Positions 32,601 through 64,000 of a DNA stretch of 64,000 bases are shown here, one piece after another (the first letter of the stretch is position 1; each line of letters opens with the position of its first letter). The stretch covers positions 2,425 to 66,424 of the forward strand of contig JAHWKL010000002.1 in assembly GCA_019347915.1 (NCBI GenBank), given 5' to 3'. The position numbers and the translations under genes are program-made. Below the pieces are notes generated by a model. The model did not search any database, was not told where the DNA came from, and was given only the letters and a program-made list of their open reading frames with translations. This stretch comes from Actinomycetota bacterium (GTDB lineage: Bacteria; Actinomycetota; Acidimicrobiia; Acidimicrobiales; CADCSY01).

Positions 32601-35600
32601 GTCGACGAAGCCGCCGACCTGCAGCGTGAGGTCGGCCACGGCGATGCTGATCTCGGGGTCGGGGCCGGAGCGGCGCTCGATGACGACGCTGCCGCCGATC
32701 GACTGCCCCGCCACGCTGAGCGTGCCGGAACCGGTGATGCGCAGCAGGTGGCTGGCCAGCTCCACCGAGCCGACGGTCTGCTGGACCTCGGTGGTGTTGA
32801 CCTGCAGGTCGAACGAGCCGGTGAGGGACACGGCCGGGATGTCGAAGGCCACGTTGGCGCTGATCTCGCCGAAGAGGCCACCGGTGACGAGCACGACCGT
32901 GCCGTTGATGTCGGTGGCCCGCACCAGCGGGGCCGACGGCGGTCCGAGGGCGAGGCTGCCGTTGGTGATCTCCACCTGGAGCGCCGAGGCCGTCTTGGTG
33001 ACGGTGACGTCGCCGGCGAGCCTCTGCCCGGCGATGGTGAGGATCACGCCGGTGCCCTTGACCCGGAGCGGGACGCCGGCATCGAGGACGAGCGACGTGG
33101 AGACGCCACCCACTACGAAGGTCTCGTTCACCGACGCTCCGGTCGAGTTGAGCTCGAGGGCGAGGGTGCCGGAGAGGGTGACGCCGGGGACGTGGTGGAG
33201 GGCGACGGTGCCGCTCACCCGGGCGGCCATGCCGGTGCCGCCGGTCAGGAACAGCGCCTCGCCGTCGGTGATGGTGAGGAAGTTGCGGGTGCCGTCACCG
33301 AGGGCGATCTGGACGTCGGTGGCGGCGATGCGTGCCCTCGTGCCGCTGGCGGTGGTGACCTGCTCGATGGTGATGTCGGCTCGGATGCGCTGGCCGGCCA
33401 CCACCAGCACGATGTCCTCGCCGGCGATGCGCAGGTACGGGCCCGCCGGCACGGCGAGCGTCACCGTGGTCGTCCCCACGACGAGGTCCTGGGCGACCGC
33501 GGCGGTGGTGGTGTTGAGCTGGACCTGCAGTGCGCCCGTCAGCGAGAAGGCGCCGCCGACGTCGAGCACGATGGCGCCCGAGAGCGACCCGGCGACACCG
33601 CTCGGGGTGATGACGAACAGGCCGGCGCCGTCGGTGAAGCCGACGGTCGGGTCGGCAGTGGTGCCCAGCACGACCAGGTCGACGTCGGCGAGCCCCAGGC
33701 GCACCACCTGTGCGCCGGCGGCGGTCGTGACCTGCTCGAACACGACGTCGCCGGTCAGGCTCTGCCCGAGCACGCTGATGGTGAGCCCGGTGCCGGACAC
33801 CTGCAGGTACGGGCCCGCCGGCAGGGCGACGCCGTCGACCGTGACCGGCGCCCCCGTGGAGTTCACCACCATGGCCAAGGAGCCGGAGACGGCGACGCCG
33901 GGGACGCTGAGCGACATGCCCACGGAGAACCGGCCGGCCAGCCCCGCCGAGGTGAGGACGAGCTCGGCCGTGGTGGTCGGCGTCTGCGTCACCGTGACGA
34001 TCGGCGCGGCCGCCGTCCCGCCGAGGTGCAGTGACACGTTGGTGGCCCCGATGCGGACCACGGGCGCACCTGCGGCGTCGCTCGAGCGGGTGATGACCAC
34101 GTCGCCACGCAGTGACTGGCCGAGGATGCCGAGGTCGACGGCGGTGCCGGTGATGCGCAGGAACGGCCCGGCCGGAAGGTTGATCGTCGTCGGCGCGCCG
34201 CCGGCCACGGCGAAGGTCTCGTTGACGTGGGCGGCAGTGGTGTTGACCTCGACGGTGAGCGCGCCGGACAGCGACACCTGCGGGACGGCCAACGCCATGG
34301 TGCCGGTGATGCGCCCGACCAGGCCGGTGGAGGTGAGCAGCAGCAGCGCGGTGCCGTTGCGGAGCGTCAGGATGGGCGATGCGCCGCCGAGGTCGAGCGT
34401 GACGTTGGTGATCGCCAAGCGGACGGCGGACGTGTCGGCGTCCGCCGCCGTGCCCCCGGGCACGCCGTCGGCCCCGTACGAGGTCACCTTGGTGGCGGCC
34501 ACGTCGCCGGTGAGGCGCTGCCCGAGCACGGTGAGCACCATGCCGGTGCCCACGAACCGGAGGTACGGACCGGCCGGGAGGACGACCGACAGCGTGGTGC
34601 CGCCGACGCTGGCCGACGTGTTCACCGCGCCGGACGTGGTGTTGACGACCAGCGACAGGCTGCCGGTCAGGCTGGCGCCTGCGGGCAGGGTCACCGCCAT
34701 CCTGCCGCCGACCCGACCGGCGACCCCGGTGCCGGTGACGACCAGCACGCCCGACCCGCCGGTGATGCGCACACCGTTGGAGCCGGCCACGGTCGCCAGG
34801 TCGATCGACGACAGGCCGATCGTCGTGACCGTCGTCCCGCCCGGGCCGGCGGCGCGCTCGATGCGCACGTCGCCGGTGAGGGTGTGACCGAGGATGGTGA
34901 TGGTCAGCCCGGTTCCCTCCACCCGGAGGTAGGGGCCGGCGGGGACGTCGAGCACCAGGACCGTGTCGCCGAGGTCGACCGAGCGCTCGGCGGGTGCGAC
35001 GCCGGAGTTCAGCGCCACGCTGAACGTGCCGCCGAACACCACGCCGGGCACGGTGACCGTCACCGTGCCGGCGATGCTCCCGGCGACACCGGTCGGGCCG
35101 GCGACGAGGATGCCGGTCCCGCCGGTCACCGAGACGGCGGAGCCGAGTGAGACCTGCACGCCGCTGGCGGCGAGGACGACGTCGCCGGTGGCGGTCTTGT
35201 CGAAGGCGAACGTGCCTTGCAGCGACTGGCCGGCGACCTGGAGCGTGGCGCCGGCAGCGACGAGTTGGGTGACGACGGTGCCGTCGGCGAAGGTGACCGC
35301 CACGCCGGGCCCGCTGCTCCCGGCGATCTCGAGGGTCTCGTTCACCGCCGTGCCGGTGGTGTTCACCCGTGCGGTCACCGTGCCGGTGAGCGCCACGCCG
35401 GCGACGCCGACCAGCCTGACCGATCCCGTGGCGACCAGGGCGTAGGTGGAGCCGACCTTGACCAGGCCGATGCGGGCGTCGGAGAGCAGCACGCCCGACG
35501 CCAGCGGGTTGACCTCGCCGGTGCTGAGCCGGGCCGGCCCTCGACCCAGGAAGATGGTGAGGCCCTCCCCGGCGAAGACCTGCGCCGGCTGGCCGCCGAT

Positions 35601-38600
35601 CGTCGTGTCGCTGAAGGCGATGTCGCCCTCGATGGTGACGAAGTCGGCGATGGTGAGGCTGAGGTTGGACAGCGACACCTCGAACACGTCGCCGGTGGCG
35701 AACTTCACGACGAGCGTGCGGCCGCCGACCTCGATCGACGTGTTGATGGCCCCGGCGGTGCCTGCGGGACGGGTGTTGACCCGCAGGAGGATGTCGGCGC
35801 CGGCAGAGACCGGTCCGGCGGCGATGTCGGCCTTGCCGGAGAGGTAGCCGGCGAGGCCGTCGGCGCCGAGGACGAACGCGCCATCCCCCTCGGTGAGGCG
35901 GGCGCCGTCCCCGCCCCCCCCGACGGTGACGTCGACCTCGACGTCGGTGGCGGCCACGACGGTCACCGAGGCACCGGCGCCGTCGGTCGCCTGCCGGAAG
36001 GCGAAGTGCCCGGCGAGCACCGGCCCGCCGGATCCAAGCGTGAGGTCGGCCCCGGTGACGTGCACCTGCACGTAAGGGCCGGCGGGCAGGGTCAGGACGC
36101 TGGTGGTGCCGCCCAGCGAGAAGTCTTCGGTCACCGGCGCCGTACCGGTGTTGATGTCGATCCGGGCGGCGTGGAACGAGAGCGTGATGCCGCCCGGCAG
36201 ATCGAACACCACGTCGGTGAGCGAGAGGCTGCCGGCCACGCCCTGGGGGGTCACGACGAACTGGCCGGAGGCCTCGTTCACCGTGACGACGTCGTCCGCC
36301 TCGGTACCGATGACGAGCAGCGGCGTTCCCGTCACGCTGGCCACCGTCACCTTGACGACGGACCAGCCGGCGGCGTTGGTGGACTGCTCGAAGGTGAAGT
36401 CGCCGTGGAGGCTCTGCCCGGCGATCTCGACGACCGCACCGCTGAGGGTGACGGCGAGCCGGCGGGTCGCGGGTCGGGTGTCGACCTCCACCGATGCACC
36501 GGTCGACACGGAGACGTCCGGGATGGCGAAGGCCAGATCGCCGGAGAACGAGCCATGGGCGCCGCCGGGTGTCACGGTCAGGTCGGCGGAGGCGTCGGTG
36601 ACGACGACCAGCCCGCCGCCGAGGGACAGCGACGCATCGTCGACGAGGAGATGGACGACGCCGCTGGTGGAGTCGACCACGACGTCGCCGGTGATCGGCT
36701 GGCCGAGGACGGTCAGGGACAGCGCCGTCCCCGAGAGCCGGACCATCGTCGCTCCGCTCGGTCCGGTCGGGAGCGCCAGCAGCACGTCGTGGCCGCCGAG
36801 CGAGATGACCTCGTTGACGTCGGCGCCCGTCGAGTTCACCTGCAGCTCCAGCGTCCCGGAGAAGCTCACGCCCGGGACGGCGAGCGTGACCGTGCCCCCG
36901 ACTCGGGCCGCCACTCCCCCGGTGGCCACCAGGACGACGCCGCGGCCGTCGGTGAGCGACACGACCGGGAGGTCCCCGCTACTCAGGGCGAAGCGCAGGT
37001 TGTCGACCACCACCACGAGGACGGGCTCCCCGCCCGAGGTGACCCGCCGCTCCACCGCCACGTCGGCGGCCAGGACGTGGTCGCCCACAGTGAACAGGGC
37101 GCCGACCGCCCCGACCCGCAGGTACGGGCCGGCGGGCAGGTCGCCGGCGGCGGCCGTGCCGGTGTTGACCTCGACCGACACGTTTCCCACCGACAGGCCC
37201 GGGATGGCGAGGCTGGCGACGTCGGCGGCCAGGCGGCCGGCGACCCCTCCGGCGCCCATGACGACCGACCCGGCGACGTTCTCCAGCGACAGGAAGGTCG
37301 TGGTGCCGTCGCCCAGGTCCAGCGTGCCGCCGGTGATCGAGATGCGGGTGACCGGAGCGCCGCTCTCGGTGCGGCGCTCGACGTCCAGCGTGGCCGCGGT
37401 GACCGTCTGCCCGGCCACGGTCAGATCGATGGCGGTGCCGGTGAGCCGGAGGTAGGGACCGGCCGCCAGGGTGGCGTCGTTGTCGGTGCCGGCGGCGTCG
37501 AAGGTCACCTCCGCTGCGGTGGTGTTGACGACGATGCGGAGGTCACCGGAGAGGGAGACGCCGGGCAGGGCGGCCACCACGGTGCCGGAGACGACGCCGG
37601 CGACGCCGGCACTGGACAGCTGGATCTCGCCCCCACCGCCGGTGAGCGAGGCGAGGTCGGTCGACCCGTCCCGCAGCACCAGCTCGACGTTGGTGGCGGT
37701 CACCGTCATGCCGGCCGCGGTGTCGACGAAGGTGAAGTCGCCGCTGAAGCTCTGCCCGGCGACGGCGGCCGTGAGCCCGACGCCGGTCACCGAGACGAAC
37801 GGGGTGGTGCCGTCCGACGTCTCGTCCGGCGTGCCGCTGGTGCCGTCGGTGAAGGCCACCACCACGTCACCGCCCTCGAAGGCGATCGTCTGGTTCACCG
37901 CACCCGTGGTCTCGTTGACCCGGGCCCGAATCTGGCCGCCGATGGTGACGCCGGCGAAGCCGACGAGCTCGACCGTGCCCCGCACGTCGAGGGCGTACAG
38001 GCCACCGACCTCAACGAACCCGACGGTGGCGTCCGTGACGAGCAGGCCTCGAGCGAGCGGGTTCCGCGATCCGTCCTCGAGGAACGCCGGTCCGTCGCCC
38101 ACGAACACCGTGAGGTTGGTGCCGGCGAACTGGCCCGGGCCGGCGCTGAAGTCGCCCTCGATGGTGACGACGTCGGCGATGGTGAGCGACAGGCCGCTGA
38201 TCGACACCGAGAAGGCGGCGGCACCGGATTCGAAGGTGATGGAGAGGTCCTCGCCGCCGACGGTGACGACCTCGTCGATGGCGGCGCCGGTGGTGTTGAC
38301 CCTGACCGAGACGCTGGCACCAGGGGTGAGCCCGGGGATCGACGCGTCGATGTCGCCGGAGAGGTATCCGGCGATGCCGTGGCCGGCGCCCGTCCCGCCG
38401 GGCGTGCCCTTCAGGACGAGGACGCCGTCGGCGTCGGTGATCGTGCTGGCGCCGTCGACGATAGTCACCGTGCCGTTGCGAACGGCCAGGATGGTGCTGG
38501 GCGTCGTGCCCGGAGCGGCCGACCGCTGGAAGACGAAGGTGCCGGCGATCGTCCCCAGCGTGCCGACGGGGAGCGGGGTGCCGGTCGGGACGACGATGAC

Positions 38601-41600
38601 GACTCGCACGTAGGGCCCGGCGGGGAGGGTGACGGGAGGCGAGGTGAGGGCGACGGCGGAGGGGCGGGTGTTGACCTGCACGCTGACGCCGGCGGACGCC
38701 AGGGTGAGACCACCCGGGAGGTCGAACGACGCCGTGGCCGAGAAGGCACCGGCGACGCCGTCGGCGGCGATCACCAGCGAGCCGTCGGCGTCGTCGATGG
38801 TGACGTACCCGCCGACGGAGACGTCGACGTCGGTCAGCGTGACCGTCACGACCGGCGTGCCGTCGGCGGCGAGCGTCCGCTCGAACCAGACCTCGCCGGT
38901 GAGCGCCTGGCCGGCGACGGTGAGGGTGACGGCCGTTCCTCCGACGAGCACCTCGCCGGCGGCAGTGTCGATGTCGGCCGACACCGAGCCGGTCAGCGAG
39001 ACGCCCGGGACGGCCACGGAGACGCTGCCGCTGAAGGTACCGGCGAGGCCGGTCGGCGAGATGGTCAGCGAGGCGGCGGCTCCGGTGATGCGGGCGAGCC
39101 CGCCCGCCAGGACCAGCGATGCGTCGGTCACCGTGACCGACACGGCGGTGGCGGCCTTGGTGATCTCGACGTCGCCGGTGAGGCGCTGGCCGAGCACGTC
39201 GACGACCACGCTGGTGCCGGTGAAGCGGAAGAAGGGGCCGCCCTCCACGTCGACGGTGACGCCGGTGCCGTCGACGGTGAAGGTCTCGTCGACGCCGGTG
39301 GTGCCGGTGTTCACCTCGAGGTGGAACCCACCGCTCACCGAGACGCCGGGGACGGTGACCCGGACCGTCCCGCTGATGGCGCCGGCGACCTCGCCGCCGG
39401 AGAAGACGAGCAGCCCGGCGCCATCGGTCAGCCGCACGAGGGGCGACGGGCTGGGAAGGGCGAAGGTGGCGTTGCTGACGGCGACCGTGACGACGTCGCC
39501 GCTCGTGCCGGGCCGCTGCTCGAGGGCGAGGTCGGCGCGCAGGGCCTGTCCGTCGGCGGTGAGCGTGGCGCCGAGGAGGACCACTCGCAGGTACGGCCCC
39601 GCCGGGAGGCCGGCGGTCGCGGTCGGCGCCGTGTTGACGGCGACGCTGACGGCCCCGCTGAGCGAGAGCTGGCCCGGCGACGTGTCGACCGTGGCGGCGA
39701 ACGTGCCGGCGACACCGGCGGCGCTCACGTCCAGGCTGCCAGCGACGCCTGCGAGCACCAGCGTTCCCGGGCCCACGTCGAGGGTGCCGCCGCTCACCGT
39801 GACCCGGGTGATGGCGCCGGCGCCGCTCCCGGAGCGGGCGACGGTGAACGACCCGCTGATCCGCTGACCGGCGACGTTCAGGGCCACGCTCGTCCCGCTG
39901 AGCCCCACGTAGGGGCCGGCCGGCAGCTCCGGCACGGTGCCGAACGGATCCACCGGAGCGCCGGTCGTGTTCACGACCAGCTGGAGGGTGCCGGTCTCCA
40001 GGCTGACGCCGGGGATGTGGAGCTGGACGGTGCCGCTCGCGGCGCCGACCATCCCCGCCGCCGACGACCGCAGGGTCGCCGTGCCTTCGGTGAGCGACGC
40101 CACCGGCGTGCTCGCACCCGAGGGGACGACGTGGAACGCCAGCCCGGTGACGGTGATGTCGAGCGTGCCGTCGGCGGCGCGCACGAAGGTGAACGTGCCG
40201 GTCAGCGACTGGCCGAGCACGCCGAGGGTCAGCGTGCCGCCGATGTCGGTGAACGGCACCGCCGAGCTCCCCTCCTCGCCGGTGGCAAACGTGACCTGCA
40301 CCGGGTCGCCACCGGGGATGGCGATCGACTCGGAGAAGGCGATGCCGAGGCTGTTCACGCGGACCGAGAGCTCGCCGGCGAGCGTCACGCCCGGCACGCC
40401 GATCAGCTGCACCGTCCCGCTCCCCGCCAGCGCGTGGTCGGCGCCGATGCGCACCACGCCGACGGTGGCGCCGGTCACGAGCAGCCCGCGAGCGAGCGGG
40501 TTGAGCGTGCCGTCGGCGAGCCAGGCGGGGCCGACGCCGATGAACAGGCGGAGGCCTCTGCCGGCGAAGACCTCGCCGGTCGTGCCGGTGGCGAAGGTGA
40601 CGTCGCCCTCGAGCGTCACCACGCCCCCGACGTCGAGGGTGACGTCGGTGAGAGCCAGGGAGAAGACGTCGCCCGCCTGTGCCTCGGTGGCGTCGAACCT
40701 CACCTCGACCGTGTGGCCGTCGAGCACGACGGTCTGGATGACCCCGTTCCCCGTGGTGTTGATGCGCAGGAGCGCCTCGGCGTCGAACCCGCTGCCGGCA
40801 CCCGAGCCCGGGGCCCCCGAGAGGAAGCCGGCCACACCGGAACCGGGGAGCACGAGCACGCCGCTCCCGTGGGTGAGCAGCTCGGTGGAGCCGGCGGTGG
40901 CGGTGATGCCGTCGAGCACGACGACGACCAGCGGCACGCCACCCTCACCGACCTGGCGCTCGAAGGCCACCGACCCGGCGAGCGTCCCGACGGTGCCGAG
41001 CGAGAACGTGGTGCTCGCCACCTGCACCCGCACGTAGGGGCCGGCGGGCAGTCCGGCGGCGGCGACGGGCCGGGTGTTGAAGGCGACCGTGACGGCGGCG
41101 TCGGTGACGGTGACGAACCCGGTGGCGTCGAGCTCGGCGGCGAGCGTGCCGGCGACCCCGCTGGCGTCGACGACCAGCGTGCCCGTGCCGCCCTCGACGG
41201 TGAGGGTCTGCGACGAGCCGGCGGCGAGGGAGAGCGCCACGCCGGACGCCGCCACCGAGAGCGCCTGGCCGTTGCGGGTGACGGTGGCCGACGTCGCGGT
41301 GACGCTCTGGCCGGCGGCCACGAGGGTCGCCTCCCCCGACGCCTCGACGTCGACTGAAGCGAGCACCGACGTGGAGCCCAGGGTGACGGCGTCGCCGGTG
41401 CCATTGTAGACGACGTCCCACCCGGTGCCGGTGAGCGCCACCTCGGGGACGCCCGCCAGCGTCACCAACCCGCCGGCGATGCGGAGGGCGACGCCGCCGT
41501 CTCCCTGGAGGAGCAGGTCCAGCGCGGTGCCGGTCACGGAGACCGCGGGCCCGCCGGGCACGGCCAGCACGCCCACCACGCTGGTGGCGTCGAGCACCAG

Positions 41601-44600
41601 GTCGGACCCGGACTGAGCCAGGGTGGCGGTGGGGGCGCTCACGGTGAGCACGTCACCGATGGTCACCGCCAGGTCGGCAACTGCCAGCGCGAACGCCCCG
41701 GCGTCGAGGGCCTCGCCCGACACGTCGTAGGTGCCCGAGAGCGTCGCCCTGCCCACGACGAGGCGAGCGCCGGCGACGACGTTGACGCGGACGAGGCCGC
41801 TGACGGCGACGCTCACCGTGTAGTTGCCGGTGGTGCCGGTGATGCCCGAGAACGACACGGTCAGCGTCTCCAGCCCGAGCACGCCGAGGTCGACGTCGTC
41901 GAGCGTCTCCGTGCGTGACCCCGACGCCGCGTCCATCACGTACTGCTGGAGGATGGGGACGATGGCACCGACGAGCCCGTCGAGCGGCGAGCCTGCCGTG
42001 TACTCGCTGAAGTGCGGCAGCACGGCGCTGACGGTGCCGGTCTGGGGATCGGCGGTCGTCGCCATCTCCTCCAGCGACCCGTCGGGCGCGACGTAGTAGA
42101 TGCGCGAGGTGGGGGCGGCGTCGCCGACGGCGATCGTCAGCACCGGGTCGACGAGGAAGGTCGTGATGGCGGCGCCGGTGCGGGCGTCGTAGGCGAGCAG
42201 GTCGAGGACCGGCGACGTGGTGTGGAGGCCGGGCACGCTCCGCGCCTCCCCGGTCACGAGGACCCACGCGTCGGCGGGCAGCCCACCCGGAGCGAAGCTG
42301 AGGGTCACCGGTCCGGCGGTGACGGTGCCGCCGAGCTCGGCGGTCACCAGCACCGAACCTGCGGGCGGCGTGAACGCCTGCGTCAGCGCTGGTTCGGTCT
42401 GGCCGTGGGGGCCGGCGTCGACTGCGGTCGCATCGTCGATGACGGTGACCGTGGCGCCTGGCCGGGAGAGGGTGATCGGACCGTCCGCCTGGACGGTGGA
42501 CGTGCGGGTGACGAGGTCGACGGCGACGGAGCCGTCAGGGATGGACGCTTCGGTGACCTCCACCGGTGGACCGCGGCCAGCGTGCAACGTCACGTCGCCG
42601 TCGGCGAACAGGGGGCCTGCGGCCCAGACGAGGCTGGACAGCGTGGCGAACGTGGCGGCCATCGAGCCGCCGGTGGCGGCGGAGCCGTCGCCGTGCGAGC
42701 CGGCATTGCTGGTCGGCGACCCGGCCAGGACGGCGGTGGCGTCGATCGGGCCTCCGCCGGCGACCGGCAGGAACGGCAGTGCCGCCACCGCGGTGGCCGT
42801 CGTCGCCGTGAGCGCCGCCGAGCGGAGCGGGACAGCGGTCGGCGCCAGGCGTGCCAGCGCGGCGGTGAGGCGACCGGCGCCGCCGTCGTCCCCCAGCCCA
42901 GCGCCGACCAGCGCAGCGACGACGAGCCCGGCCGTCTCGAGAGCCGCCTGTGGCGATGCCGGTGGCGCCAGCTCGGCGGCGACGCCGGTCGGGTGGGCCA
43001 CCGACGACGTCCACGATGCGCCATGGGCATGGACGGTCACCGCCCCGCCGGCGTCGACGGCGCGGCCGATGTCGGCAGAGGTCTCGTGGCGTGCGACCGT
43101 CACCGCGGCCAGCGATCCGGTCGAACGGGCGCTGGCGTCCTGGGTGGCCGTCACGGCGAGGTGGCCGGCTGGCGCCAGGGTGGGCCCGGAGCCGATCGTG
43201 GCCGAGGTGAGCGCGGAGGAGACGACGACCGCGCCACCGGGTGACAGATCGGTGCCGGCATCGGCCGTCGCCGCGTCGGTCGAGGTCGCCATCACGTCGA
43301 TCGAGGAAGCGCCGTCAACGGCGGCCCCATCGCCGATCGACGCTCGGGTGCCGGCGTCGGACACCACCACTGCCAAGCTCGACGTGGCCGGCGACGCTCC
43401 CCGGGCGACCGCCTGAGCGGTTCGCGACGAGCCCGCACCGAGGGAGACGGCGCCGGGCTCGCCCCGCCCGACGAGCAGTGTGGCACCGTCGAGGATGCGC
43501 GCCTCGGTGGACCCGCGGGCCAGGTTGACGGCGAGCGACGCCGTGTGGCCGCCGGACGTCGACGCGTCGCTCATGGCCTGGGCCAGGTCGGCGTCCACCT
43601 CGACCGACGGCGCCTCGAGCACGAGGTGGCCGTCGAGGTGCGCACGGGGCGCGAGCGACGTCACCACCACCGCCACCGCCCCGCCCGGGGCGTCGCCGAA
43701 CCCCGAGGCGTGGACCTCGCTCACGTCGGTGGCACGGGCGGCGACGCGCTGCGTCTCCGACGTGCGGATGGTGAGCGACCGGTCACCGCCAGAGGCGAGG
43801 AACGACTGGGTCTGGCCGATGGAGCGACCGAAGCCGAGGGCCCTGGCGACCGCCACCGGGCCCGAGGGTGTGACCGTCAGGCCGAAGATGAGGTCGGCCG
43901 GCGACCGACTGTTGCCCGTGGCGCCCCCCGCGCTCCCCGAGGACCACACCTCGAGCGCGCTGTCGGACGTGGCCTCGACGACGAGCCGCCGGGCGACGAT
44001 CCCGTCGGCGCTCGCCCCCTCGACCGCTGCGGTGGTGACCCGCCCCACGTCAGCCATGGCGATGCCCGCCCCTGCCGGCGACGCCGATGCGTCGCCGATG
44101 GCGCGCCCGTCGGTCGTGTTGTTGGCGAGGACGCTCAAGACCCCGCTCGCCAGCACCGAGCTGGCGCCGCCCAGCGTCGAGACGGCCCGGCTGGCGAGCA
44201 CCACCGACGCCAGCGCGGCATCCTGGGCCGAGTCGGCGTGGGCGGCGTCGCCGAGGGCCGTGGCCCGTCCCCAGGCCACCGAGTCGGCAACCAGGGAGAC
44301 GTCGCCACTGGAGACGAGGCGCGAGTCGACGACCGACACCGTCGCTGACGATCTGGCGACGACCTCGGCGCGGGTGCCGGTGGCGTCGGCGCCGGCACGC
44401 GAGCGTGCGGACAGCGTGATGTCGCCACCTCGCAGAGTCGCCCCGTCGACGGTGACGGAGGCTCCTGCCCCGGCGTCCGAGCCCGTCGACTCGTCGCTGG
44501 CGGTGAGCATGATCGCCCCGTCGGCCGCCCCGCCGCTGGTGTCGATGCTCGCCCCCCGCTCGACGAGGACGTGCTGTGCCCGGACGGCGAGGCCGGTCCC

Positions 44601-46178: not shown

Positions 46179-46696
46179 TGCCCTCCCCTCTCGATCGCCG
46201 AGTGGCCACTCCGACGCGCGCGTCTCCACGAGCAACGCAGATGTGGGCTTCGCACGGAGGGTAAGAAGCGGCTTGTCCCGCCGCCCAGGGGCAGTTGTCC
46301 CTTTCTGCCCGGGACATTTCGGCTACCGGACGTCGCGGTGGGGTCTCGACCCGGGGTTCAGGGATGCAGCTCCGGTCGAGGTTGCGGCGCCGAGGTCTCG
46401 ACCGTGAGCACAGCCTTCTTCCCATCTGGGCGAAGGCGGGACTTCAACGCTCCAGCTCGACTCCAAGCCGAGATGCAGGTGCCTTGACCACTACATGAAC
46501 GCTGTGGCATGTGGCGAGGCGTGGGTGCAGGAGCCAGCTCGACACGTGGCTCGCCGCCTGCCAGCTCGTGCCAGCGACCACAAGCGGTGGATCCCTGTCG
46601 GAATGCAGCCATGCGGTCGCTCCGAACGGTCCGCCAAGTAGGTTGAGAGTCGCCCTCAGGCTGATGCTGCCCGCAAGGATGAGGAGAAGTATCGTC

Positions 46697-46936: not shown

Positions 46937-46975
46937 CGCCGTCGTAGGCGGCACAACGGCGCTGTCGGTGGAGGC

Positions 46976-47270: not shown

Positions 47271-47271
47271 G

Positions 47272-47802: not shown

Positions 47803-48041
47803 TCGCGGCACCAATGACAAGTAGCGACCAAAACGTCTCCGGACCACAGTGGCGCCCGGTCGCCCGACGGGCTACGGAGTCGGTCGACGGGGTTCACCGT
47901 CGGCGTGACGTGCGGCCTGTTCGCCCAGAGGAGCACGGTGGACTCACGACGGCTCCCCTCGCTGCGTGGCTCCCCAGCTGCAGGTGGGTGCTCCACCGTG
48001 CGCAAGAGCGGGCAGGGCCCCGGGCTACCCTGTCGTCGGAA

Positions 48042-48410: not shown

Positions 48411-48680
48411 TCCCCTGATCGAGCCGGCCGCGCGTGCCGGCAGAGCTGGAAGGAACCCACATGACGAGTGCGCCTCGTCGGCGCGCCGCCGCCGCGGTCA
48501 CCGCCGCGAGGCTGAAGCCATTGGGCGAGCGGCTGCCCAAGGTTCGCCCTTCAGGCGTAGTGAGCGGCAAGTGAACCACCCAACGCCGACCCAGAGCCTC
48601 GTTCCAAGAGTTCACCCGAAATCCGCACCTGCGGCAGGCCGTTCTCACGGCACCCGTCCAGACCCTGAAGGAGCGAACCC

Positions 48681-49118: not shown

Positions 49119-49327
49119 CGCTGTCCCTGCCGACGCCAGCCATCTGCAGGCCCCTTCACGGTCTCCTCCGACCAGCCTGCGGGGGGCAGTGCGCTCGGGC
49201 ATCTCCTCCTCCAGTGAGCTGGTGCACACGGGAGAGGCGGGGCAGCAGCTCCAGTCATTTCCTGGTGTCGAACGTCGACGACCCCACTGAACATCACCGC
49301 GCGCCGCGTGGACGAGCGCCCCGGAAC

Positions 49328-49357
49328 GTAGCGGGATCCCGTCCGAGATCCCGCTAC
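49328..49357. terminator. Perfect 11-bp inverted repeat hairpin (gtagcgggatc-ccgtccga-gatcccgctac)
   Basis: Read directly from the sequence. It sits in the 410-bp gap between 48681..49118 and the antiporter gene. On the minus strand it begins inside the stop codon of an unlisted 49-codon ORF (49354..49503). There is no U-tract. Confidence 0.3.
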
Positions 49358-49527
49358 CCGGCGGCGCCGAGGCCGCGGTGGTGGCGGTTGCACGCGACGA
49401 CACACCACAGCTCCTGGAGGACGACCGGCATCGTCCGTGCGAACCGGGTGACCGGCTCGTCGTCGCGGCGCGCCGCGACCGCCTGGACGCGGTCGTCCAA
49501 CACCTTGCCGGCTGAAGCCGGCCAACC

Positions 49528-57985: not shown

Positions 57986-58062
57986 CTGCTCGAATGGACA
58001 AAGAGATGGCCAGCTGCGGGAGCTGAACAGGGTCCGCCCCGAGCTGCCGGCGCCGACGGGCT

Positions 58063-58944
58063 TCAGAACAGGGTCGGTGGCTCGGGCGCATCATCCCTTG
58101 GCGCCACGCGTCGCTGGCTGCCGGCGGCCGTCGGCCGTTCCGCGGCCGGCGACGGGCTCATCAGGGAGTCGGCCCATGCCCGGATCCGAGCGTTCGGATC
58201 GTCCTTCGCCAGCGCGTAGGCAGCCTCCGGGCCCTGCTGTTCAGCGATGCGGGCCAGGCCGAGCCGGCGAACCGCCTGGTCTGGCCATTGGATCGCCTCC
58301 GTGACCAGCAGTTCCTGTACTTGTGGGACGAGGCTGTCGATGGCGTCGAGCAGACCTGCGGCCACGGCCGCTCCCCGGCGAGCATCGAGGGCCCGGGCCC
58401 GGGCGAGCACGGGACCCCAGGCGCCCGAATCCCGCCTCGCAGCGTGCGCGGCAGCCCACCTGCGCAGCGGCGGAGCGACCTCGCGCCGGACGACAGTAGG
58501 TCCGTCCGGCACCGACTCCTCTTCACTGACCGCCGACACGTCGTGATCCTCGTCGATGACGACGACGATGACTTCATCGCCCAGCCACTCGTCGGGGAGT
58601 TGCCAGTAGACGGCTTCGTCGGCGGCGAGAAACGTCCGGGTGAGAAGGTCGAGCTGCTCCTCGTCGAGGATGTCGGACTCCGCGATCCTTCGGACGAGGT
58701 CCCCGACGCCGCCACGCCAGCGCAGATCGGTGACCAGGAGGATGGCCGTGACGGCAGAGGTGGACGGCTCGGTCTCATGGTGCTTCTGAAGGAGGGCGAA
58801 CGCCTCGTCGGCATCGGCGCTGCGACGGATCGGCGGGTGCAGCACGAGGATGCGGTGAAGCTCGTCGGCGGTCCTGGCCGACCAGAGGTCGGCCACCTCA
58901 CGCATACCATCTTCTGGGTCGACCCGGCGCCGCATCCCCATCAC
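58063..58944 (-). CDS. Hypothetical protein with C-terminal HEAT-like repeats
   Basis: 293 aa, acidic. The C-terminal part DQAVRRLGLARIAEQQGPEAAYALAKDDPNARIRAWA resembles PBS-lyase HEAT-like repeats. No other family was recognised. Confidence 0.55.
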   Translation of the reverse strand: MMGMRRRVDPEDGMREVADLWSARTADELHRILVLHPPIRRSADADEAFALLQKHHETEPSTSAVTAILLVTDLRWRGGVGDLVRRIAESDILDEEQLDLLTRTFLAADEAVYWQLPDEWLGDEVIVVVIDEDHDVSAVSEEESVPDGPTVVRREVAPPLRRWAAAHAARRDSGAWGPVLARARALDARRGAAVAAGLLDAIDSLVPQVQELLVTEAIQWPDQAVRRLGLARIAEQQGPEAAYALAKDDPNARIRAWADSLMSPSPAAERPTAAGSQRRVAPRDDAPEPPTLF

Positions 58945-58980
58945 GGATTCGGCGGTCGCCTCGAAGGGGGTCCCACGGTG

Positions 58981-59313
58981 TCAGGCCGCCGGCTGCTTGC
59001 CGAGCTCGATCGGCACGCGACGGTCTTCATCGTCGAACACCGCGACGAGCTCCAGCCGAGCGCCGAGCGCTTCGAGATACTGCCGCAACGTTGAGATGCG
59101 CACATTGTCGGCGTGTTCGAACTTGGAGATGGCCCCCTGGGTGATCTCCAGGCGACCGGCCAGCTCGGCCTGGCTCACGGCCTCGGCATGACGGAGCTCG
59201 TAGAGACGGAGCTCCTCCCGCGACCGCTCCCGGGCTTCCGCGACCGCTTCTTCGGCTCCCGGCTTCGACCGCAATTCGGCCCGCACGATTGACCACTTGG
59301 TGTGACCACTCAT
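58981..59313 (-). CDS. XRE-family HTH protein (HigA-like antitoxin or controller protein)
   Basis: 110 aa. VSQAELAGRLEITQGAISKFEHADNVRISTLRQYLEALG is a Cro/C1-type HTH. Its ATG overlaps the stop of the upstream ORF by 1 nt (TGATG). Confidence 0.8.
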   Translation of the reverse strand: MSGHTKWSIVRAELRSKPGAEEAVAEARERSREELRLYELRHAEAVSQAELAGRLEITQGAISKFEHADNVRISTLRQYLEALGARLELVAVFDDEDRRVPIELGKQPAA

Positions 59314-59993
59314 CAGATCCAGCCCTTCTCACGCAGCTCGTCGAGGTAGACGTCGTACAGCTCCTCCGCAGCCGGGACGGCCCACTCGTACCACTCGTTC
59401 CATTGCGATTTCGTTGTACTCAGCGGCGGTCTCGGCGAAGTGTTCGCGCAGCGAGAGCCGGAGGTCTCGACGCCCATCGTCGTACCGAAGGTCGGTGAAC
59501 GTGAACACCCCTCGGGGCTGCTTACGCGCAGCGGCGAGAACGAGCGACGAAATCGCCCGGCTCCGCTTGGCGCCGCTGAGAAGGTCGATGTGCGACCACG
59601 CTGAGTCGAGGAACGCCCGGTCCTCGGGGGTGAAGTAGAGCCCGTCGAACGTGGTCTGGATGAAGTCTCGGCTGTCGGCCGCCGGACCGGTGATTCGCGC
59701 GACATCCCCGTCCGTGAGGGTGACAGCGTTGTTAGCGACGGAAGCGTCCGCAATCACCGTCGGGAACGAGAGAAAGTCGTTCGAGGTGACAGCGTAGCCC
59801 ATCGACTTCAGGGTGTAAGACACGCCACCACTGCCCGAGAACGCATCGAGCGCTGAGGCACCACCGAGCTCCCGAAGAGTTCGGCAAGGTGGGGAACCAG
59901 CCGATGCTTCGACCCCATGTACCTCAACCTCGGGAATCTCGCTGCGGCAGCAGCCGCGTGCTCGGCTCGAGACAGCGGTGCGGTCATGGCCAT
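59313..59993 (-). pseudogene. D12-class-like SAM-dependent DNA methyltransferase remnant (at least 2 frameshifts, catalytic motif not found)
   Basis: N-terminus FPRLRYMGSKHRLVPHLAELFG. After a -1 slip in a G run (~59868-59876) it reads ELGGASALDAFSGSGGVSYTLKSMGYAVTSNDF (FxGxG motif I). A second slip (~59395-59415) joins ..FAETAAEYNEI to QWNEWYEWAVPAAEELYDVYLDELREKGWI*. No (D/N)PP(Y/F) motif appears in any frame. Confidence 0.55.
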
Positions 59994-60528
59994 GTCGAAC
60001 AACGTGGGCGGCCGCCCGGCGCCCCTGGCGGACCGGGGGTCAGATTTCGGCCGGGCCATCCTGGCCTCCTGGCGTTCGTCGGATCAGAGGGTCCTCGGCC
60101 GAGCTGCCGGGCGCGAGCGCCGGCAGTACCGACATCATGCCGCAGCCCCTGTGACACCCACTCTCCACCACGGCCCCGCGCGGGGCGGGCGCCACCTTGA
60201 TGTGACCGGAGCGCGCTACGCGGCGGGCGCCGCACCGATCCTCAGGATGAAGTAGCGGGCGTCCTTCACACGCTGCCTGAGGCCCCGAGCTGGCGCAGGT
60301 TGAAACTCCCCGAGCGGCCATGCGTCGCGATGTCGAACTCATAGAACAGGGCGAGGACATTTTCGATGTCTTCCTCCACCAAGTCCTCGAAGTCGTCGTC
60401 AGCGGGGCCCGCTCGCCTCAGACAAAGCGAATGCGAGCTCGCCGGGAGATGTCGCCTTGCCCGTACGATCGCAGGCCGGATCGTCGTGCTCAACGACCTC
60501 CCCTGGTGGTGCCAGACGCTCGAGGACA

Positions 60529-60849
60529 TCAGCGCCGCGAAGAAAGCCGACGCGGGCTCGAGAATGCGTTGGCTCGCCGCAGCTCACGGTTCTCCTGCTC
60601 CAACGCCTTGATCCGCGCCCGGTCCTCGCTCGAGGTGCCCGCCTTCAGGCCCTCGTCGACGTCGGCGCGCTTGACCCACTTGCGCACCGTCTCGACTCCG
60701 TACCCCAGCTGATCGGCGACCCGCTGGATCGTCCCGTGCTCGGTGCCCAGCTCCCGGCGCAGCTGACGAACCAACCGCACCGCCTGGGCCTTCTCCTCCT
60801 CTGAGTACCGACGCGTCGTCGGCCTCCCCGGCTTGATCTCCTTCGGCAT
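60529..60849 (-). pseudogene. IS3-family transposase OrfA (HTH), 3'-disrupted
   Basis: ATG 60849 with GAGGATGGAG upstream. MPKEIKPGRPTTRRYSEEEKAQAVRLVRQL...TIQRVADQLGYGVETVRKWVKRADVDEG...LEQENRELRRANA. A 1-nt loss then turns the expected ILxxASAFFAAELD into FSSPRRLSSRR*. Confidence 0.75.
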
Positions 60850-60903
60850 GACTCCATCCTCGTTTCCAAGGTCTGGAGCCTCCAACCAACCCAGGGCGGT
60901 TCA
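60534..60903 (-). mobile_element. IS3-family (IS6110-like) insertion sequence stump: left IR + orfA only
   Basis: The minus strand from 60903 reads TGAACCGCCCTGGGTTGGTTGGAGGCTCCAGACCTTGGAAACGAGGATGGAGTCATG. This closely resembles the IS6110 left end as I remember it (TGAACCGCCCCGGCATGTCCGGAGACTCCAGTTCTTGGAAAGGATGGGGTCATG). Similarity ends after GCGTCGGCTTTCTTCGCGGC (breakpoint 60533/60534). orfB (DDE) is absent. Confidence 0.75.
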
Positions 60904-61746
60904 GTGAGCGCAGCGGAGGCGGCCTCGGCCCACGTCGTCCACGCCGTGGTGGAGGAGGTGGTGGTGCTGGAGGCGGCCAAGGCCCGCGACGAGGCCCGGC
61001 GTCTCGCCGCCGAGGGCGACTTCACCGGCGGACAGAGCCTGCTGCGGGCATCGGCGCACCAACTGCGTCTCAGCGCCATCGGCTCGGCCAAGTCCGACGA
61101 GCTGCTGGCCGAGGCCGACATGCTCGACGACACCGGGGCCTCGCTGGCCCCGAGCTCCTACGACGCCAGCGCCCGCAAGCGCCTCCACGGTGCCGCCATG
61201 CGCCGGGAGCTGCGTCGCCTCGGTGTGCAGCGTGTGGCGCCCGAAGAGCTGGAAGGCATGGTGATCGACGCCTGCTTCGAGCTGTTCGACTGCGGAGCGG
61301 CCTGGGACCCGACGGGCGGCGCCCTGCCGTGGACGTGGGCCGGGCGGCGCCTACGCCGGGTTGCCTCGGCGTGGGTCGGCCAGCACGCCGACGAGCTCGA
61401 TGTCGAGCGCTTCGACGCAGGCGCCGACGCCCGAGGCCCGACCCTGGTCGACGACGAGGCCGAGCTCGACGTGCTGGCGCGCCTGGCCGAACGCCACGCC
61501 GGCTGCGCGCTGGTGCTCGACGCACTGGAGCACGTGGCCAGCCGGCGCGACCGGGCCATCGTGTTGGAAGTACGGGTGCAGATGGCCAGCGGCGATCCCT
61601 CCCCCGCGCTCACCGTGGCCCGCCGCCACGGCCTGACGCCTGAGGTCGTCCGCCAGGTGGTCTGCCGGGTCCGGGCACGCCTCAACCACCTGGCAGCCCA
61701 CGACGACCGGTTCGCGCCGCTGGCTGACGTGCCGCCCGTCGCATGA
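60904..61746 (+). CDS. 5'-truncated ORF abutting the IS end; the internal ATG at 61198 begins a sigma-70/ECF-like HTH protein
   Basis: The ORF begins at the base next to the IS inverted repeat. Its first 95 aa (..ARDEARRLAAEGDFTGGQSLLRASAHQL..ELLAEADMLDD..YDASARKRLH) resemble C-terminal tails of actinobacterial VWA proteins (from memory). From M99 on: region-2-like EELEGMVIDACFELFDCGAAWDP..LPWTWAGRRLRR and region-4-like RDRAIVLEVRV...LTVARRHGLTPEVVRQVVCRVRARL. Confidence 0.45.
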   Translation: MSAAEAASAHVVHAVVEEVVVLEAAKARDEARRLAAEGDFTGGQSLLRASAHQLRLSAIGSAKSDELLAEADMLDDTGASLAPSSYDASARKRLHGAAMRRELRRLGVQRVAPEELEGMVIDACFELFDCGAAWDPTGGALPWTWAGRRLRRVASAWVGQHADELDVERFDAGADARGPTLVDDEAELDVLARLAERHAGCALVLDALEHVASRRDRAIVLEVRVQMASGDPSPALTVARRHGLTPEVVRQVVCRVRARLNHLAAHDDRFAPLADVPPVA

Positions 61747-61797
61747 CGGCCGAAACTCTTTCCTCAGGGGCCGGCGCGCTCAGATGACGCGCTCGCT

Positions 61798-61858
61798 GGG
61801 GTCTTCCTTACTCAAGCTCACCCTGGCCACACGTCGATATATGAGGGACGGACATGAT
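61798..61858 (+). repeat. 61-nt intergenic element, copy 1
   Basis: ggggtcttccttactcaagctcaccctggccacacgtcgatatatgagggacggacatgat. It matches copy 2 at 54 of 61 positions without gaps and ends 21 nt before the ATG at 61880. Confidence 0.85.
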
Positions 61859-61879
61859 TCGGTGCCATGGGAGGACCGG

Positions 61880-62065
61880 ATGGACATCAACGATGCACCT
61901 GCGGCTGACCCAGCCCGAGTCGCTTCTCGACCCAGAGCTCGCCACCGATACGGAGGCACCTGCCACCGATGCGGACGAGCGATCACGGTCCAAGAGGGCG
62001 GGCGCGGCGCAGACCTACTCGTCTTGGACTACGACGAGACCTGGGTTCATGCTGGTTGCCTCTAG
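61880..62065 (+). CDS. Small hypothetical protein with zinc-ribbon-like CxxC...HxxC
   Basis: 61 aa. GGGAGGA lies 5 nt upstream of the ATG. MDINDAPAADPARVASRPRARHRYGGTCHRCGRAITVQEGGRGADLLVLDYDETWVHAGCL. Confidence 0.45.
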   Translation: MDINDAPAADPARVASRPRARHRYGGTCHRCGRAITVQEGGRGADLLVLDYDETWVHAGCL

Positions 62066-62269
62066 GACCGGGTATCTGAGGATCGAAGGCATTCACGGCG
62101 GTAAACGCCTGTTGGTGCCACAAAGCGGGTGAGGAGTTCGCCAGTCCGGCTACGTCCGGACCGTGCGGGGTTTCCGGGACTTGCGGCGCTTGCAGATCCG
62201 GCTCCGTCCGGCTCTGTCCGTCGTCGTTCGTTCGACAAGCTGTTTGACACGTTCTGGCGCGGTACATGC

Positions 62270-62515
62270 TCAGCCACGTTGCTGCTCGAGTTCGTGCTCG
62301 ACCGCTCGGCGAGTCCAGCTGGATACAGAGCGATGATCATCGCAGCGCGCCGACGAACCTCCTCCAGGGCGTCACCCCAGGGTCTCCGGCCCGAACCGAA
62401 CCGGGACCATCTCGGTGAGCCTGGACCGGCGGCGGCGACCGGGACCCTGCGGCTCCCGGTTCTCGGGCTCGGCGTAGAACTCGACTTCTTCGGCGCGAGT
62501 CATCTTCTTCGTCAT
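62270..62515 (-). pseudogene. Ribbon-helix-helix (CopG-like) antitoxin-type gene with in-frame TGA / two compensating frameshifts
   Basis: ATG 62515 with GGGAGGA upstream. MTKKMTRAEEVEFYAEPENREPQGPGRRRRSRLTEMVPVRFGPETLG then TGA (62372..62374). The expected continuation DALEEVRRRAA is in another frame. The original frame resumes with DDHRSVSSWTRRAVEHELEQQRG* (stop 62270..62272). Confidence 0.6.
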
Positions 62516-62585
62516 CGGTCCTCCCGCACCGCTCGGCGGTGACAAGGCGTCCGGACATCGTCCGGACAGTGACTATGCTCCCCAC

Positions 62586-62876
62586 ATGAGCGAGCCCGCC
62601 GTCACTCCGTCCCGGCGCCACCGCCTCGAGGTGCGCGTCACTCCCGAGCAGGACGCGCTGATCCGCCAGGCGGCCGATCTCGAGGACACGACCGTGACCG
62701 CCTTCGTGCTGGACACCGTCACCGCCAGGGCCAAGGGCGTGATCAAACAGCGGCAGGACCTGGTGCTGTCCAACGAGGCGTTCGATCGCTTCATCGCCGA
62801 GCTCGACAAGCCAGCCGAGCCGGCACCAGAGCTGGTTGAGCTGTTCAAAGAGAACCCCGCGCTCCGCGACGAGTGA
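62586..62876 (+). CDS. DUF1778 (TacA-type RHH) antitoxin
   Basis: 96 aa. RLEVRVTPEQDALIRQAADLEDTTVTAFVLDTVTARAKGVI plus a C-terminal toxin-binding tail. Its stop overlaps the GTG of the downstream GNAT gene. Confidence 0.85.
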   Translation: MSEPAVTPSRRHRLEVRVTPEQDALIRQAADLEDTTVTAFVLDTVTARAKGVIKQRQDLVLSNEAFDRFIAELDKPAEPAPELVELFKENPALRDE

Positions 62877-63387
62877 GCGATCCGAACGTACGGCTGGAGC
62901 GCCTGGGGCCCCACCACCATCTCGGCAGCTTCGAGTGCGGGAACGCGGAGCTCGACGACTGGCTTCGACGCCATGCCGTCCCGGCACAGGAGATGGCTCG
63001 GCCCGGACGTTCGTGCTCATCAGCAAGGACCACGTCGTTGGCTACTTCAGCCTCACCATGGGCTCGGTGCGACGGGCCGACGCCCCCGCCAAGCTCGTAC
63101 GAGGCCTACCTGCCTATCCCGTCGGGATGGTTCTGCTCGCCCGGCTCGCCGTCGCCGGCCAGGCCCAGGGCAAGGGGATGGGTGCGTTGTTGCTGGCGGA
63201 GGCTCTGCGCAAGGCCGTCGCAGCCGGGGAGGCTGTCGCAGCCCGACTGGTCGTGCTCGACGCCGTCGATGACGACGCCGCCAGGTTCTACGAACGACAC
63301 GGCTTTGTCCCCGCTCCCGGCCACCGGCTGCGGCTGTACCGACGAATGAAGGACATCCGCGCCAGCCTCGATCGGGCACGGCAGTGA
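62873..63387 (+). pseudogene. GNAT acetyltransferase toxin (TacT/KacT type), frameshifted
   Basis: The frame from GTG 62873 gives MSDPNVRLERLGPHHHLGSFECGNAELDDWLRRHAVPAQEMA, then nonsense. The -1 frame (62836..63387 ORF) continues SARTFVLISKDHVVGYFSLTMGSV...LARLAVAGQAQGKGMGALLLAEAL...FYERHGFVP with the acetyl-CoA motif QxxGxG. The 1-nt indel is at ~62990-63005. Confidence 0.8.
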
Positions 63388-63457
63388 GCGACGCAGGAAG
63401 GAGCAGTCGACGCCGCGGATGATCCGGGTCGACGGCGAAGGCGTCCATCCCTGATGA

Positions 63458-63518
63458 GGGGTCTTCCTTACTCGAGCCCACTCTGACCACACGTCGATAG
63501 AAGAGGGACCGACATGAT
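63458..63518 (+). repeat. 61-nt intergenic element, copy 2
   Basis: ggggtcttccttactcgagcccactctgaccacacgtcgatagaagagggaccgacatgat. It ends 23 nt before the ATG at 63542. Confidence 0.85.
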
Positions 63519-63541
63519 GAGACATCTGGCAGGGTAAGGGC

Positions 63542-63859
63542 ATGGATTCGGCGCGTTCGTACGAGCACATCACCGCCGAGGACCTTGCTCGACTCGGCGA
63601 GCTCGCCGGCGCCGACCGAGAGCAGTTCTTCAAGGGGCGCCCCGAGTACCGGGATCGGCTTCGCACCGCAAACCAGAGGGACCTCTTCCGGCGAATCTTC
63701 GGGTTGGCGACTTCATGCTCGATGCTCGCTGGCATGGTCGACTCGTCCAACGCGAAGACCGCTTCTGCGTCGTCGCCTACGACGGCCTCGACCCGCTCAC
63801 CGGACGTGAGCGGCTGTCGCTGGGACCCGCGGCCACTCGTGAGGGCGCCGAGCAGGTAG
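63542..63859 (+). CDS. Hypothetical ORF (only the first ~45 aa look coding)
   Basis: MDSARSYEHITAEDLARLGELAGADREQFFKGRPEYRDRL has plausible composition. The remainder overlaps the integrase-like frame and looks like read-through. Confidence 0.3.
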   Translation: MDSARSYEHITAEDLARLGELAGADREQFFKGRPEYRDRLRTANQRDLFRRIFGLATSCSMLAGMVDSSNAKTASASSPTTASTRSPDVSGCRWDPRPLVRAPSR

Positions 63860-63975
63860 CCGGCGATGGCGGCGAGGCCGGGTGGTCCTGCGGGCCCGAA
63901 ATGAAAGCACGGAGCCCGCCCCGCCGCCGTAGAAGCTGCAACGGGATGGCGAACGGGGAAGGAACCCCACCATGA
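63715..63975 (+). pseudogene. Tyrosine-integrase N-terminal arm-binding domain fragment
   Basis: ARWHGRLVQREDRFCVVAYDGLDPLTGRERLSLGPAATREGAEQVA matches the GxxYQRxDGRWxxxxxxGxDPxTGKRxxxxxxxxTRxEAExxL pattern of actinophage / integrative-element integrases. The sequence then degenerates and stops at 63975, with no catalytic domain in the window. Confidence 0.45.
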
Positions 63976-64000
63976 TGATCACCGAGTTGAGCAAGCGTGT

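Follow-up and report, generated by a model that had tools for sequence, protein, structure and literature searches.

Bacterial pseudogenes are short-lived, with rapid turnover under a deletional bias. Toxin-antitoxin pairs of the Gp49/HTH_37 type occur on Tn3-family transposons and phages, and the loss of an antitoxin while its toxin still works is lethal. Insertion sequences (IS) of the IS3 family use programmed -1 frameshifting. Members of these and other familiar families lie in pieces at one locus of an Actinomycetota bacterium (Acidimicrobiales; assembly GCA_019347915.1, contig JAHWKL010000002.1), within a stretch of 64,000 nucleotides (nt) of high-GC DNA that we refer to as the window. 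The source is a metagenome-assembled genome (MAG). From window position 59407 to ~63970 (~4.6 kb) extends a pile of broken mobile-element, defence and toxin-antitoxin genes, referred to below as the islet.

We judge with a probability of roughly three in four that the islet is a recently decayed, non-functional scar, pieced together from the remains of eight or more independent modules of mobile, defence and toxin-antitoxin type. Taken as a whole it is an islet degraded in a familiar way, ordinary genome decay and no new system, and every recognisable component belongs to a known family (IS3, TacAT, Gp49/HTH_37, D12 methylase, VWA, PF18165). Every piece of 58.0-64.0 kb was re-annotated against intact homologues (Table 1). 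Each fragment has intact counterparts elsewhere, the breakpoints are precise, and the small indels are absent from the homologues.

Six small frameshift indels were verified against intact homologues, all of them in the islet: two in the YlcI-like ribbon-helix-helix (RHH) gene and one each in the D12 methylase, the pP_pnuc_1-like fragment, the IS3 orfA and TacT. To these are added at least seven truncation or fusion junctions. The initial annotation, made from the sequence without database searches, had counted at least 8 frame disruptions in 5 kb and none in a neighbouring giant open reading frame (ORF), and had described almost every recognisable gene as broken. The comparison with intact homologues bears this out and finds the damage even understated, with only the two antitoxins intact within the islet's toxin-antitoxin pairs. 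The giant ORF (2499..46235, minus strand; 14,578 codons) is open throughout its 43.7 kb, with no lesion. By eye it is repetitive and adhesin-like.

Assuming an equal indel rate everywhere, the chance of all six indels falling in 4.6 kb out of 48.3 kb is ~7e-7. Runs of at least four G or C number 331 in the giant ORF, none of them shifted, and 38 in the islet. A frame plot of GC content at third codon positions (GC3) has long, uninterrupted phases over the core genes (51-58 kb), whereas those of the islet are short and keep switching. The GC3 frame signal is also weak or ambiguous, with few convincing ORFs, at 46300-49400 upstream of the giant ORF, unlike at 49.5-58 kb. Overall GC content is 0.681 in the islet (standard deviation, sd, 0.039) versus 0.718 in the giant ORF (sd 0.029); the patchiness remarked on in the initial annotation is real but modest. 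The two patches named there are extreme: 59390-59420 and 62060-62300 (GC 0.622) fall in the lowest 0.012% and 0.25%, respectively, of same-size windows elsewhere in the window, and the former coincides with the junction between the Gp49 toxin remnant and the methylase.

Table 1. Annotated features between 58.0 and 64.0 kb of the window (aa, amino acids).
Feature	Position	Strand	Basis or remark
293-aa gene, intact, function unassigned	58063..58944	-	third gene of conserved Gp49-XRE-293aa cassette
XRE/HTH_37 antitoxin, intact, 110 aa, toxin partner gone	58981..59313	-	PF13744, PF13560, PF01381
Gp49/HigB-like toxin remnant, last 30 of 119 codons (residues 90-119)	59316..59405	-	homology to L003, L011
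D12-class (type II) adenine methylase pseudogene	59407..60059	-	PF02086, profile positions 1-65 only
pP_pnuc_1-like (PF18165) fragment, 5' third missing, one frameshift at ~60404	60269..60532	-	Pfam score after frame joining
IS3-family remnant, 371 nt, terminal repeat and orfA	60533..60903	-	PF01527, E 3.7e-10
VWA-domain gene remnant, last ~95 of 422 codons, beheaded by IS	60904..61188	+	homology to L004, L005
220-aa gene remnant, codons 36-220 (first 35 missing)	61189..61746	+	P0001 residues 36-220, 95% identity
61-nt direct repeat, copy 1	61798..61858	+	54/61 match to copy 2, sharp ends
Low-GC non-coding stretch, CGTCCG(G/T) repeats and GTTCGTTCGACAAGCTGTTTGACACG motif	62130..62254	+	recurs in L018, L067, L076
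YlcI/YnfO-like RHH pseudogene, two compensating shifts (~62375, ~62341)	62273..62515	-	tblastn against 73-aa homologue
TacA antitoxin (DUF1778), intact, 96 aa	62586..62876	+	PF08681, E 2e-24
TacT GNAT toxin pseudogene, one 1-nt deletion at 62996/7 (codon 42)	62873..63387	+	PF13508, PF00583
61-nt direct repeat, copy 2	63458..63518	+	
Gene of unassigned family, first 40 codons (MDSxRSYEPI...RPEYRDRL)	63542..63661	+	homologues P0198-P0201
Putative N-terminal tyrosine integrase remnant (...VVAYDGLDPLTGRER...), 49 codons	63715..63861	+	weak similarity

Intact counterparts of the broken genes

In the methylase pseudogene, the N-terminus and the S-adenosylmethionine (SAM)-binding motif I (DAFSGSGG, matching FxGxG) are retained, and the fragment is 65-82% identical to proteins annotated as DNA adenine methylase. 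A single frameshift lies between 59874 and 59871, where GGGG is reduced to GGG, as judged against homologues reading LAELFGELGG. The gene ends with ...AEYNEI at the 59406/59407 junction, and tblastn high-scoring segment pairs run in two frames and end at 59407. Intact homologues continue with EYNxVVF and, after ~30 aa, LDPPYAPP (120 homologues). Two slips and the lack of a catalytic motif had been claimed for this gene: the DPPY motif IV is indeed missing, because the gene is truncated ~30 codons before it, and the supposed second slip is the junction with the 3' end of the Gp49 toxin gene. No conserved partner of the methylase was found, as the neighbours of its homologues in L007-L010 share nothing with window 60060-60560.

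The homologues of this methylase are themselves often disrupted. None of the ~56 inspected (from P0078-P0197, L007:4560-6000 and L008-L010) is full length; many have out-of-frame tails beginning just before DPPY or at STIVLSYSSN, and several 265-aa homologues on long contigs begin after motif I. One (P0078) breaks off immediately ahead of DPPY and is followed ~0.2 kb downstream by an ISL3 transposase gene; that of L007 has three shifts and lies in four reading-frame segments. This recurrent disruption could be long-read noise or recurrent inactivation.

On the other side of the methylase junction lies the Gp49 toxin remnant. An intact 119-aa toxin (PF05973, E 1e-16) is encoded by two related contigs (L003:129-488 and L011:2241-2600) that also carry the same 110-aa antitoxin gene, and their DNA homology to the window (84% and 87%, respectively) ends in both cases at 59406, a shared breakpoint. 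The window has no complete operon of PF05973 and PF13744. The ATG of the intact antitoxin gene overlaps the stop codon of the toxin remnant by 1 nt. The homology of L011 to the cassette spans window 58056-59406 and includes the 293-aa gene, which has 74 homologue clusters of 270-300 aa, one 100% identical protein (P0204, locus tag KY452_00460) and no match in Pfam, NCBIfam, PHROG or PADLOC. Adjoining the intact Gp49 toxin gene of L011, a gene at 3-2156 on the minus strand encodes a PrimPol (PADLOC PDLC01465, E 4e-87) fused to an SF2 helicase, so that the cassette sits in a defence-type neighbourhood there too.

The remnant of the IS3-family element is bounded by its terminal repeat TGAACCGCCCTGG at 60903 (minus strand), which aligns with the end of Rhodococcus IS3-family elements, and from that repeat on it is 72% identical at the DNA level to their first 373 nt. 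Its orfA, with the expected helix-turn-helix (HTH) domain, carries a 1-nt deletion at ~60566, inside the conserved RANEILK motif, and stops at ...FFAA; in tblastn, residues 1-94 match, with a frame change thereafter. The slip and the truncation reported earlier for orfA are therefore both present. Homology to the elements ends at 60533, after 371-373 nt; orfB, encoding the DDE transposase, and the second inverted repeat are absent, and the pP_pnuc_1-like fragment adjoins directly. As a single ORF that fragment scores 24.1 bits against its Pfam profile, and with its two frames joined 33.2 bits (E 4.6e-8, profile positions 42-120 of 133; cut-off 26.3). A second frameshift considered near 60268 is unsupported, since the Pfam match ends before it.

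Two genes are beheaded at the IS remnant. The initial annotation had recognised one ORF decapitated by the IS, which stands for the VWA gene at 60903/4; the count was too low, as the pP_pnuc_1-like gene is cut at 60532/3 as well. The VWA remnant is 92% identical at the nucleotide level to L004:1861-2145 and 86% to L005. In both L004 (GCA_019348255.1; 92-94% nucleotide identity) and L005, the VWA gene (422 aa) and the 220-aa gene are intact. A deletion of 238 nt at 61188 (L004:2146-2383 is absent from the window), overlooked in the earlier account, fuses the two remnants in frame, and the 280-aa ORF at 60904-61746 is a chimera of the two. Similarity of the 220-aa gene to sigma-70/ECF factors is weak and below the cut-off, and PADLOC gave no match for either this pair or the pP_pnuc_1-like fragment. 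Homology to L004 ends at 61773.

For the RHH pseudogene, tblastn against a 73-aa homologue on the Hoyosella plasmid pAS9A-2 gives 55-60% identity over residues 1-69, the middle being out of frame. Two slips and an in-frame TGA had been described: the two shifts are there and compensate each other, and the TGA falls between them, where the frame is shifted. In the window the gene has no toxin partner. On the Hoyosella plasmid (L093, 1199-1722), a 101-aa gene that lies before the intact homologue and overlaps it has the look of a toxin partner. The window lacks this gene, so its RHH gene was probably an antitoxin gene that has already lost its toxin.

The tacA and tacT genes overlap by 4 nt (GTGA at 62873-62876), the arrangement expected of an antitoxin and its toxin. 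The TacA homologue of L067 is likewise 96 aa. The toxin gene has no uninterrupted frame: the DNA reads ATGG-CTCGG where eight aligned homologues read ATGGACTCGG, tblastn segments run in two frames, and all 80 metagenome relatives are uninterrupted over residues 1-167. This one slip in the GNAT toxin had been seen correctly; the deletion lies outside any homopolymer. Upstream of tacA are two GTCCGGAC palindromes at 62549-62567, and the upstream 40 nt are kept in ~35 metagenome loci, a conservation that makes this palindromic region the probable TacA operator. The palindrome occurs a third time ~400 nt upstream, at 62154-62161.

In both toxin-antitoxin pairs (Gp49-XRE and TacAT), then, the toxin is dead and the antitoxin intact. 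Given the lethality of losing an antitoxin before its toxin, toxin-first decay is the only viable order of loss. Drift may be what preserves the surviving antitoxins, or they may serve as autoregulators or anti-addiction genes.

The right end of the islet holds two further fragments. Homologues P0198-P0201 match the first of them, of the RSYE family, over residues 1-41 only, and the continuation LCxALCQGAxxHYVD found in P0199 and P0201 is absent from all frames of the window. The second had been called an integrase reduced to its arm domain, an assignment for which we found no profile support, the fragment having no match in Pfam, PHROG or NCBIfam and no tblastn match against plasmids and phages at E<=0.1. 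It weakly resembles fragments cut short in a similar way near tacT in L018 and L047; when a consensus of those fragments, rather than the window sequence, served as query, its 11 best plasmid matches (E<=10, none significant) included 6 at annotated integrase N-termini. No integrase catalytic domain (PF00589, R-H-R-Y) occurs in any frame of 63500-64000. The candidate ORF runs to 63975, and 63973 is the start of a different gene.

Genuine lesions or assembly artefact

The lesions are probably genuine, as the initial annotation had held, and random sequencing error is unlikely because the giant ORF is open and independent contigs match the lesions exactly. Three Logan contigs (SRR15827330) are 100% identical, without gaps, to window 58178-59412 (L002), 59412-60595 (L094, with the methylase and pP_pnuc_1-like genes) and 62474-64000 (L001, with TacT). 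They cover four of the six frameshifts (methylase, pP_pnuc_1-like, IS orfA and TacT) and four junctions (59406/7, by 6 nt; 60532/3; 63661; and 63861). At the junctions 59406/7, 60532/3 and 61188 there is no shared repeat of k-mer length, the exception being the IS remnant itself. An intact region in close relatives had been named as what would speak against the earlier interpretation, a criterion that is misdirected: the intact single-module copies found in relatives, at 84-94% nucleotide identity, show lineage-specific decay here and not sequencing error.

Several observations weigh against reading the islet as a scar of real lesions, and most of them favour an artefact, in which the contig would be a chimera of strain variants or repeat copies, some indels would be consensus errors and the true lesions would be fewer. 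The source is a MAG. The stretch 60596-62473, which holds the IS/VWA junction, the 238-nt deletion and both RHH shifts, yielded no independent contig, the IS orfA and the 280-aa ORF are absent from the exact-match index, and a mis-join between two IS copies inside the remnant, at 60596-60903, is possible. Two Logan contigs meet at precisely 59412, and the second of them ends at 60595; both points lie within a k-mer of a lesion, which suggests graph branches, variant alleles or repeat copies in the sampled population: the point where L002 and L094 meet is 6 nt from the Gp49/methylase junction, and the end of L094 is 30 nt from the orfA deletion, where a variant would break a unitig at k=31. The reads behind these contigs may also be the ones that the MAG was assembled from. 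The many frameshifted methylase homologues in databases indicate that noisy assemblies are common. Beyond the lesions themselves, the order of events is one that we infer, and the notion of a variable region draws on short contigs from relatives.

Against an artefact stand the zero shifts in the adjacent 43.7-kb ORF despite its many G/C runs, and the complete identity of a separately built assembly across four frameshifts and four junctions, with L002 extending 6 nt past the 59406/7 junction into the methylase side. The three junctions named above offer no shared repeat that would enable a mis-join, and a chimera would explain at most the join across the IS, not the truncations themselves. We consider this explanation unlikely, and the decay of a real islet remains our preferred reading.

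Age and proposed history of the decay

The lesions had been taken to mark an old integration hotspot under relaxed selection. Compared with L004, the VWA and 220-aa remnants have ratios of nonsynonymous to synonymous substitution rates (dN/dS) of 0.31 and 0.21, respectively, as in comparisons of intact with intact genes (0.22-0.37). Its deletion aside, TacT keeps 89 of the 92 positions showing 90% or greater conservation across 77 intact homologues, where controls that are intact differ at 2.5 on average, and the methylase fragment keeps 47 of 47 such positions. These signatures of purifying selection, with next to no excess substitutions, indicate that the decay is recent, post-dating most of the divergence from relatives; the disruptions are young relative to the dS of ~0.12-0.18 that separates the locus from its nearest relatives.

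A long-standing integration hotspot that has drifted for a long time under relaxed selection would account for the many lesions of several kinds, the lower and patchier GC content, the presence of integrase-like and IS remnants, and the different contexts in which the modules occur in relatives. Such long drift is at odds with the dN/dS of 0.2-0.3 in the remnants, as in intact genes, and with the lack of excess change at conserved residues. As for the hotspot, the identity of the integrase rests on weak similarity with no profile match, and no tRNA, att site or empty site was found. Scans for tRNA and tmRNA found none in the window, an Rfam scan gave nothing relevant, and no att-like repeat in the window flanks the islet as a whole. 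The sole relative among the species genomes of the Genome Taxonomy Database (GTDB) is an Acidimicrobiales MAG, in which L003 is a 1,087-nt contig; an empty site was not found, the relatives' contigs (L003, L011) being 1-4 kb long and none spanning both flanks. In relatives, VKOR or NYN/PIN genes lie next to the VWA gene and the PrimPol-helicase next to Gp49. Such differing neighbourhoods would fit a variable region and are no demonstration of a hotspot. An old graveyard is thus improbable, and recent decay agrees better with the conserved residues of the remnants.

That some of the shifts serve a function is scarcely credible, whether as programmed ribosomal frameshifting of orfAB in the IS3 element or as phase variation where the methylase, RHH or TacT genes have G runs. 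In its favour, IS3 elements do frameshift in this way, the indels of the methylase and RHH genes fall within runs of 3-4 G, and methylase homologues are recurrently shifted at similar places. Against it, the IS shift is within RANEILK, upstream of the usual slip region and with no slippery heptamer, there is no orfB to express, the TacT deletion is not in a homopolymer, the catalytic half of the methylase is gone in any frame, and the runs are too short for classical phase variation.

On the reading of recent decay, the following history may be proposed. The modules (Gp49-XRE-293aa, the type II methylase, the pP_pnuc_1-like gene, the VWA and 220-aa genes, the RHH gene, tacAT and an integrase-bearing element) would first have gathered in a variable region, after which the VWA gene would have received an IS3-family insertion. 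Starting inside the IS, a deletion may then have taken orfB together with the 5' parts of the VWA and pP_pnuc_1-like genes. Additional deletions, showing little or no microhomology, would have produced the methylase-Gp49 and VWA-220-aa fusions and cut the RSYE-family and integrase-like genes. Finally, single-base indels, at least two of them in G runs, would have struck TacT, the methylase, the RHH gene, the IS orfA and the pP_pnuc_1-like gene.

In an annotation, the labels 280-aa hypothetical protein, methylase and GNAT enzyme should give way to pseudogenes and gene fragments. The locus offers a small, clean example of young pseudogenes being removed by deletion and of toxin-antitoxin pairs decaying toxin first, leaving orphan antitoxins, and it shows that the assembly quality of a MAG can be checked internally where a giant ORF remains intact next to an islet rich in lesions.

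Motifs around tacAT and relation to known systems

The locus opens no long-standing question. What it leaves over is a pair of conserved non-coding motifs in the surroundings of tacAT: the 61-nt repeat and, as the second, the GTTCGTTTGACAAGTTGTTTGACACG motif. The two copies of the repeat, 89% identical, bracket the 1.6-kb segment that holds the RHH gene and tacAT. The homology to L004 stops 24 nt upstream of copy 1 (at 61773), and an ATGGA start codon follows each copy after 23 nt. Searches of viral contigs, plasmids and JGI metagenome contigs gave no match to the repeat, nor did Rfam, and the window holds neither a third copy nor an inverted one. Three identities were tried and rejected. As a structured RNA, it folds no better than shuffled controls. 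As an integron attC site, neither strand of either copy beats shuffled sequence (z 1.3 to -0.02), and the repeat is direct with no internal symmetry. That it is the normal upstream region of the RSYE-family gene is ruled out by L092. Between copy 1 and the low-GC stretch lies a doubtful small ORF.

The second motif consists of CGTCCG(G/T) repeats followed by GTTCGTT(T/C)GACAAG(T/C)TGTTTGACACG and is found in the low-GC stretch of the window and at L018:5300-5426, L067:1007-1131 and L076:4180-4304. All four loci carry tacAT; L067 and L076 are near-identical to each other. One speculative idea is that the 61-nt repeats mark an undescribed small integrative or cassette-like element of Acidimicrobiia-type actinobacteria, to which the CGTCCG/TTTGACA motif, found again beside tacAT and a shortened integrase-like N-terminus at unrelated metagenome loci, perhaps belongs; the element would have tacAT as cargo, inserting in tandem and decaying to scars of antitoxin and integrase stub. 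We give this little credence; if true, it would mean that intact orphan antitoxins are retained as anti-addiction genes.

The components compare with their families as follows. Like D12-class (Dam-like, type II) N6-adenine methyltransferases, the methylase pseudogene has the YMGSK N-terminus and the FxGxG SAM-binding motif; it differs in being truncated before DPPY, in its one frameshift and in having no restriction enzyme partner. The terminal repeat of the IS remnant starts with TGA and its orfA has HTH_Tnp_1 and the leucine-zipper/RANEILK region, as in the IS3 family, whereas the remnant is 371 nt long, with a frameshifted orfA, no orfB (DDE transposase) and no second end. The tacAT pair shares with TacA-TacT (DUF1778/GNAT) modules the PF08681 match, a toxin 65-78% identical to 80 homologues, the 4-nt overlap and the putative palindromic operator, and departs from them in the 1-nt deletion at codon 42 of the toxin, which leaves the antitoxin alone intact. 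As in Gp49 (HigB-like)/HTH_37 pairs, the antitoxin matches PF13744, and in the intact relatives the stop codon of the PF05973 toxin gene overlaps the antitoxin start; here just 30 toxin codons are left, and no Tn3 transposase or resolvase genes are nearby. The islet as a whole differs from described degraded genomic islets and defence islands in lacking a tRNA/att boundary and a demonstrable empty site and in its size of ~4.6 kb (~5.9 kb with the Gp49-XRE-293aa cassette), but resembles them in its cluster of mobile, defence and toxin-antitoxin genes, its low and patchy GC content, its IS and integrase-like remnants, and its truncations, frameshifts and apparently young pseudogenes.

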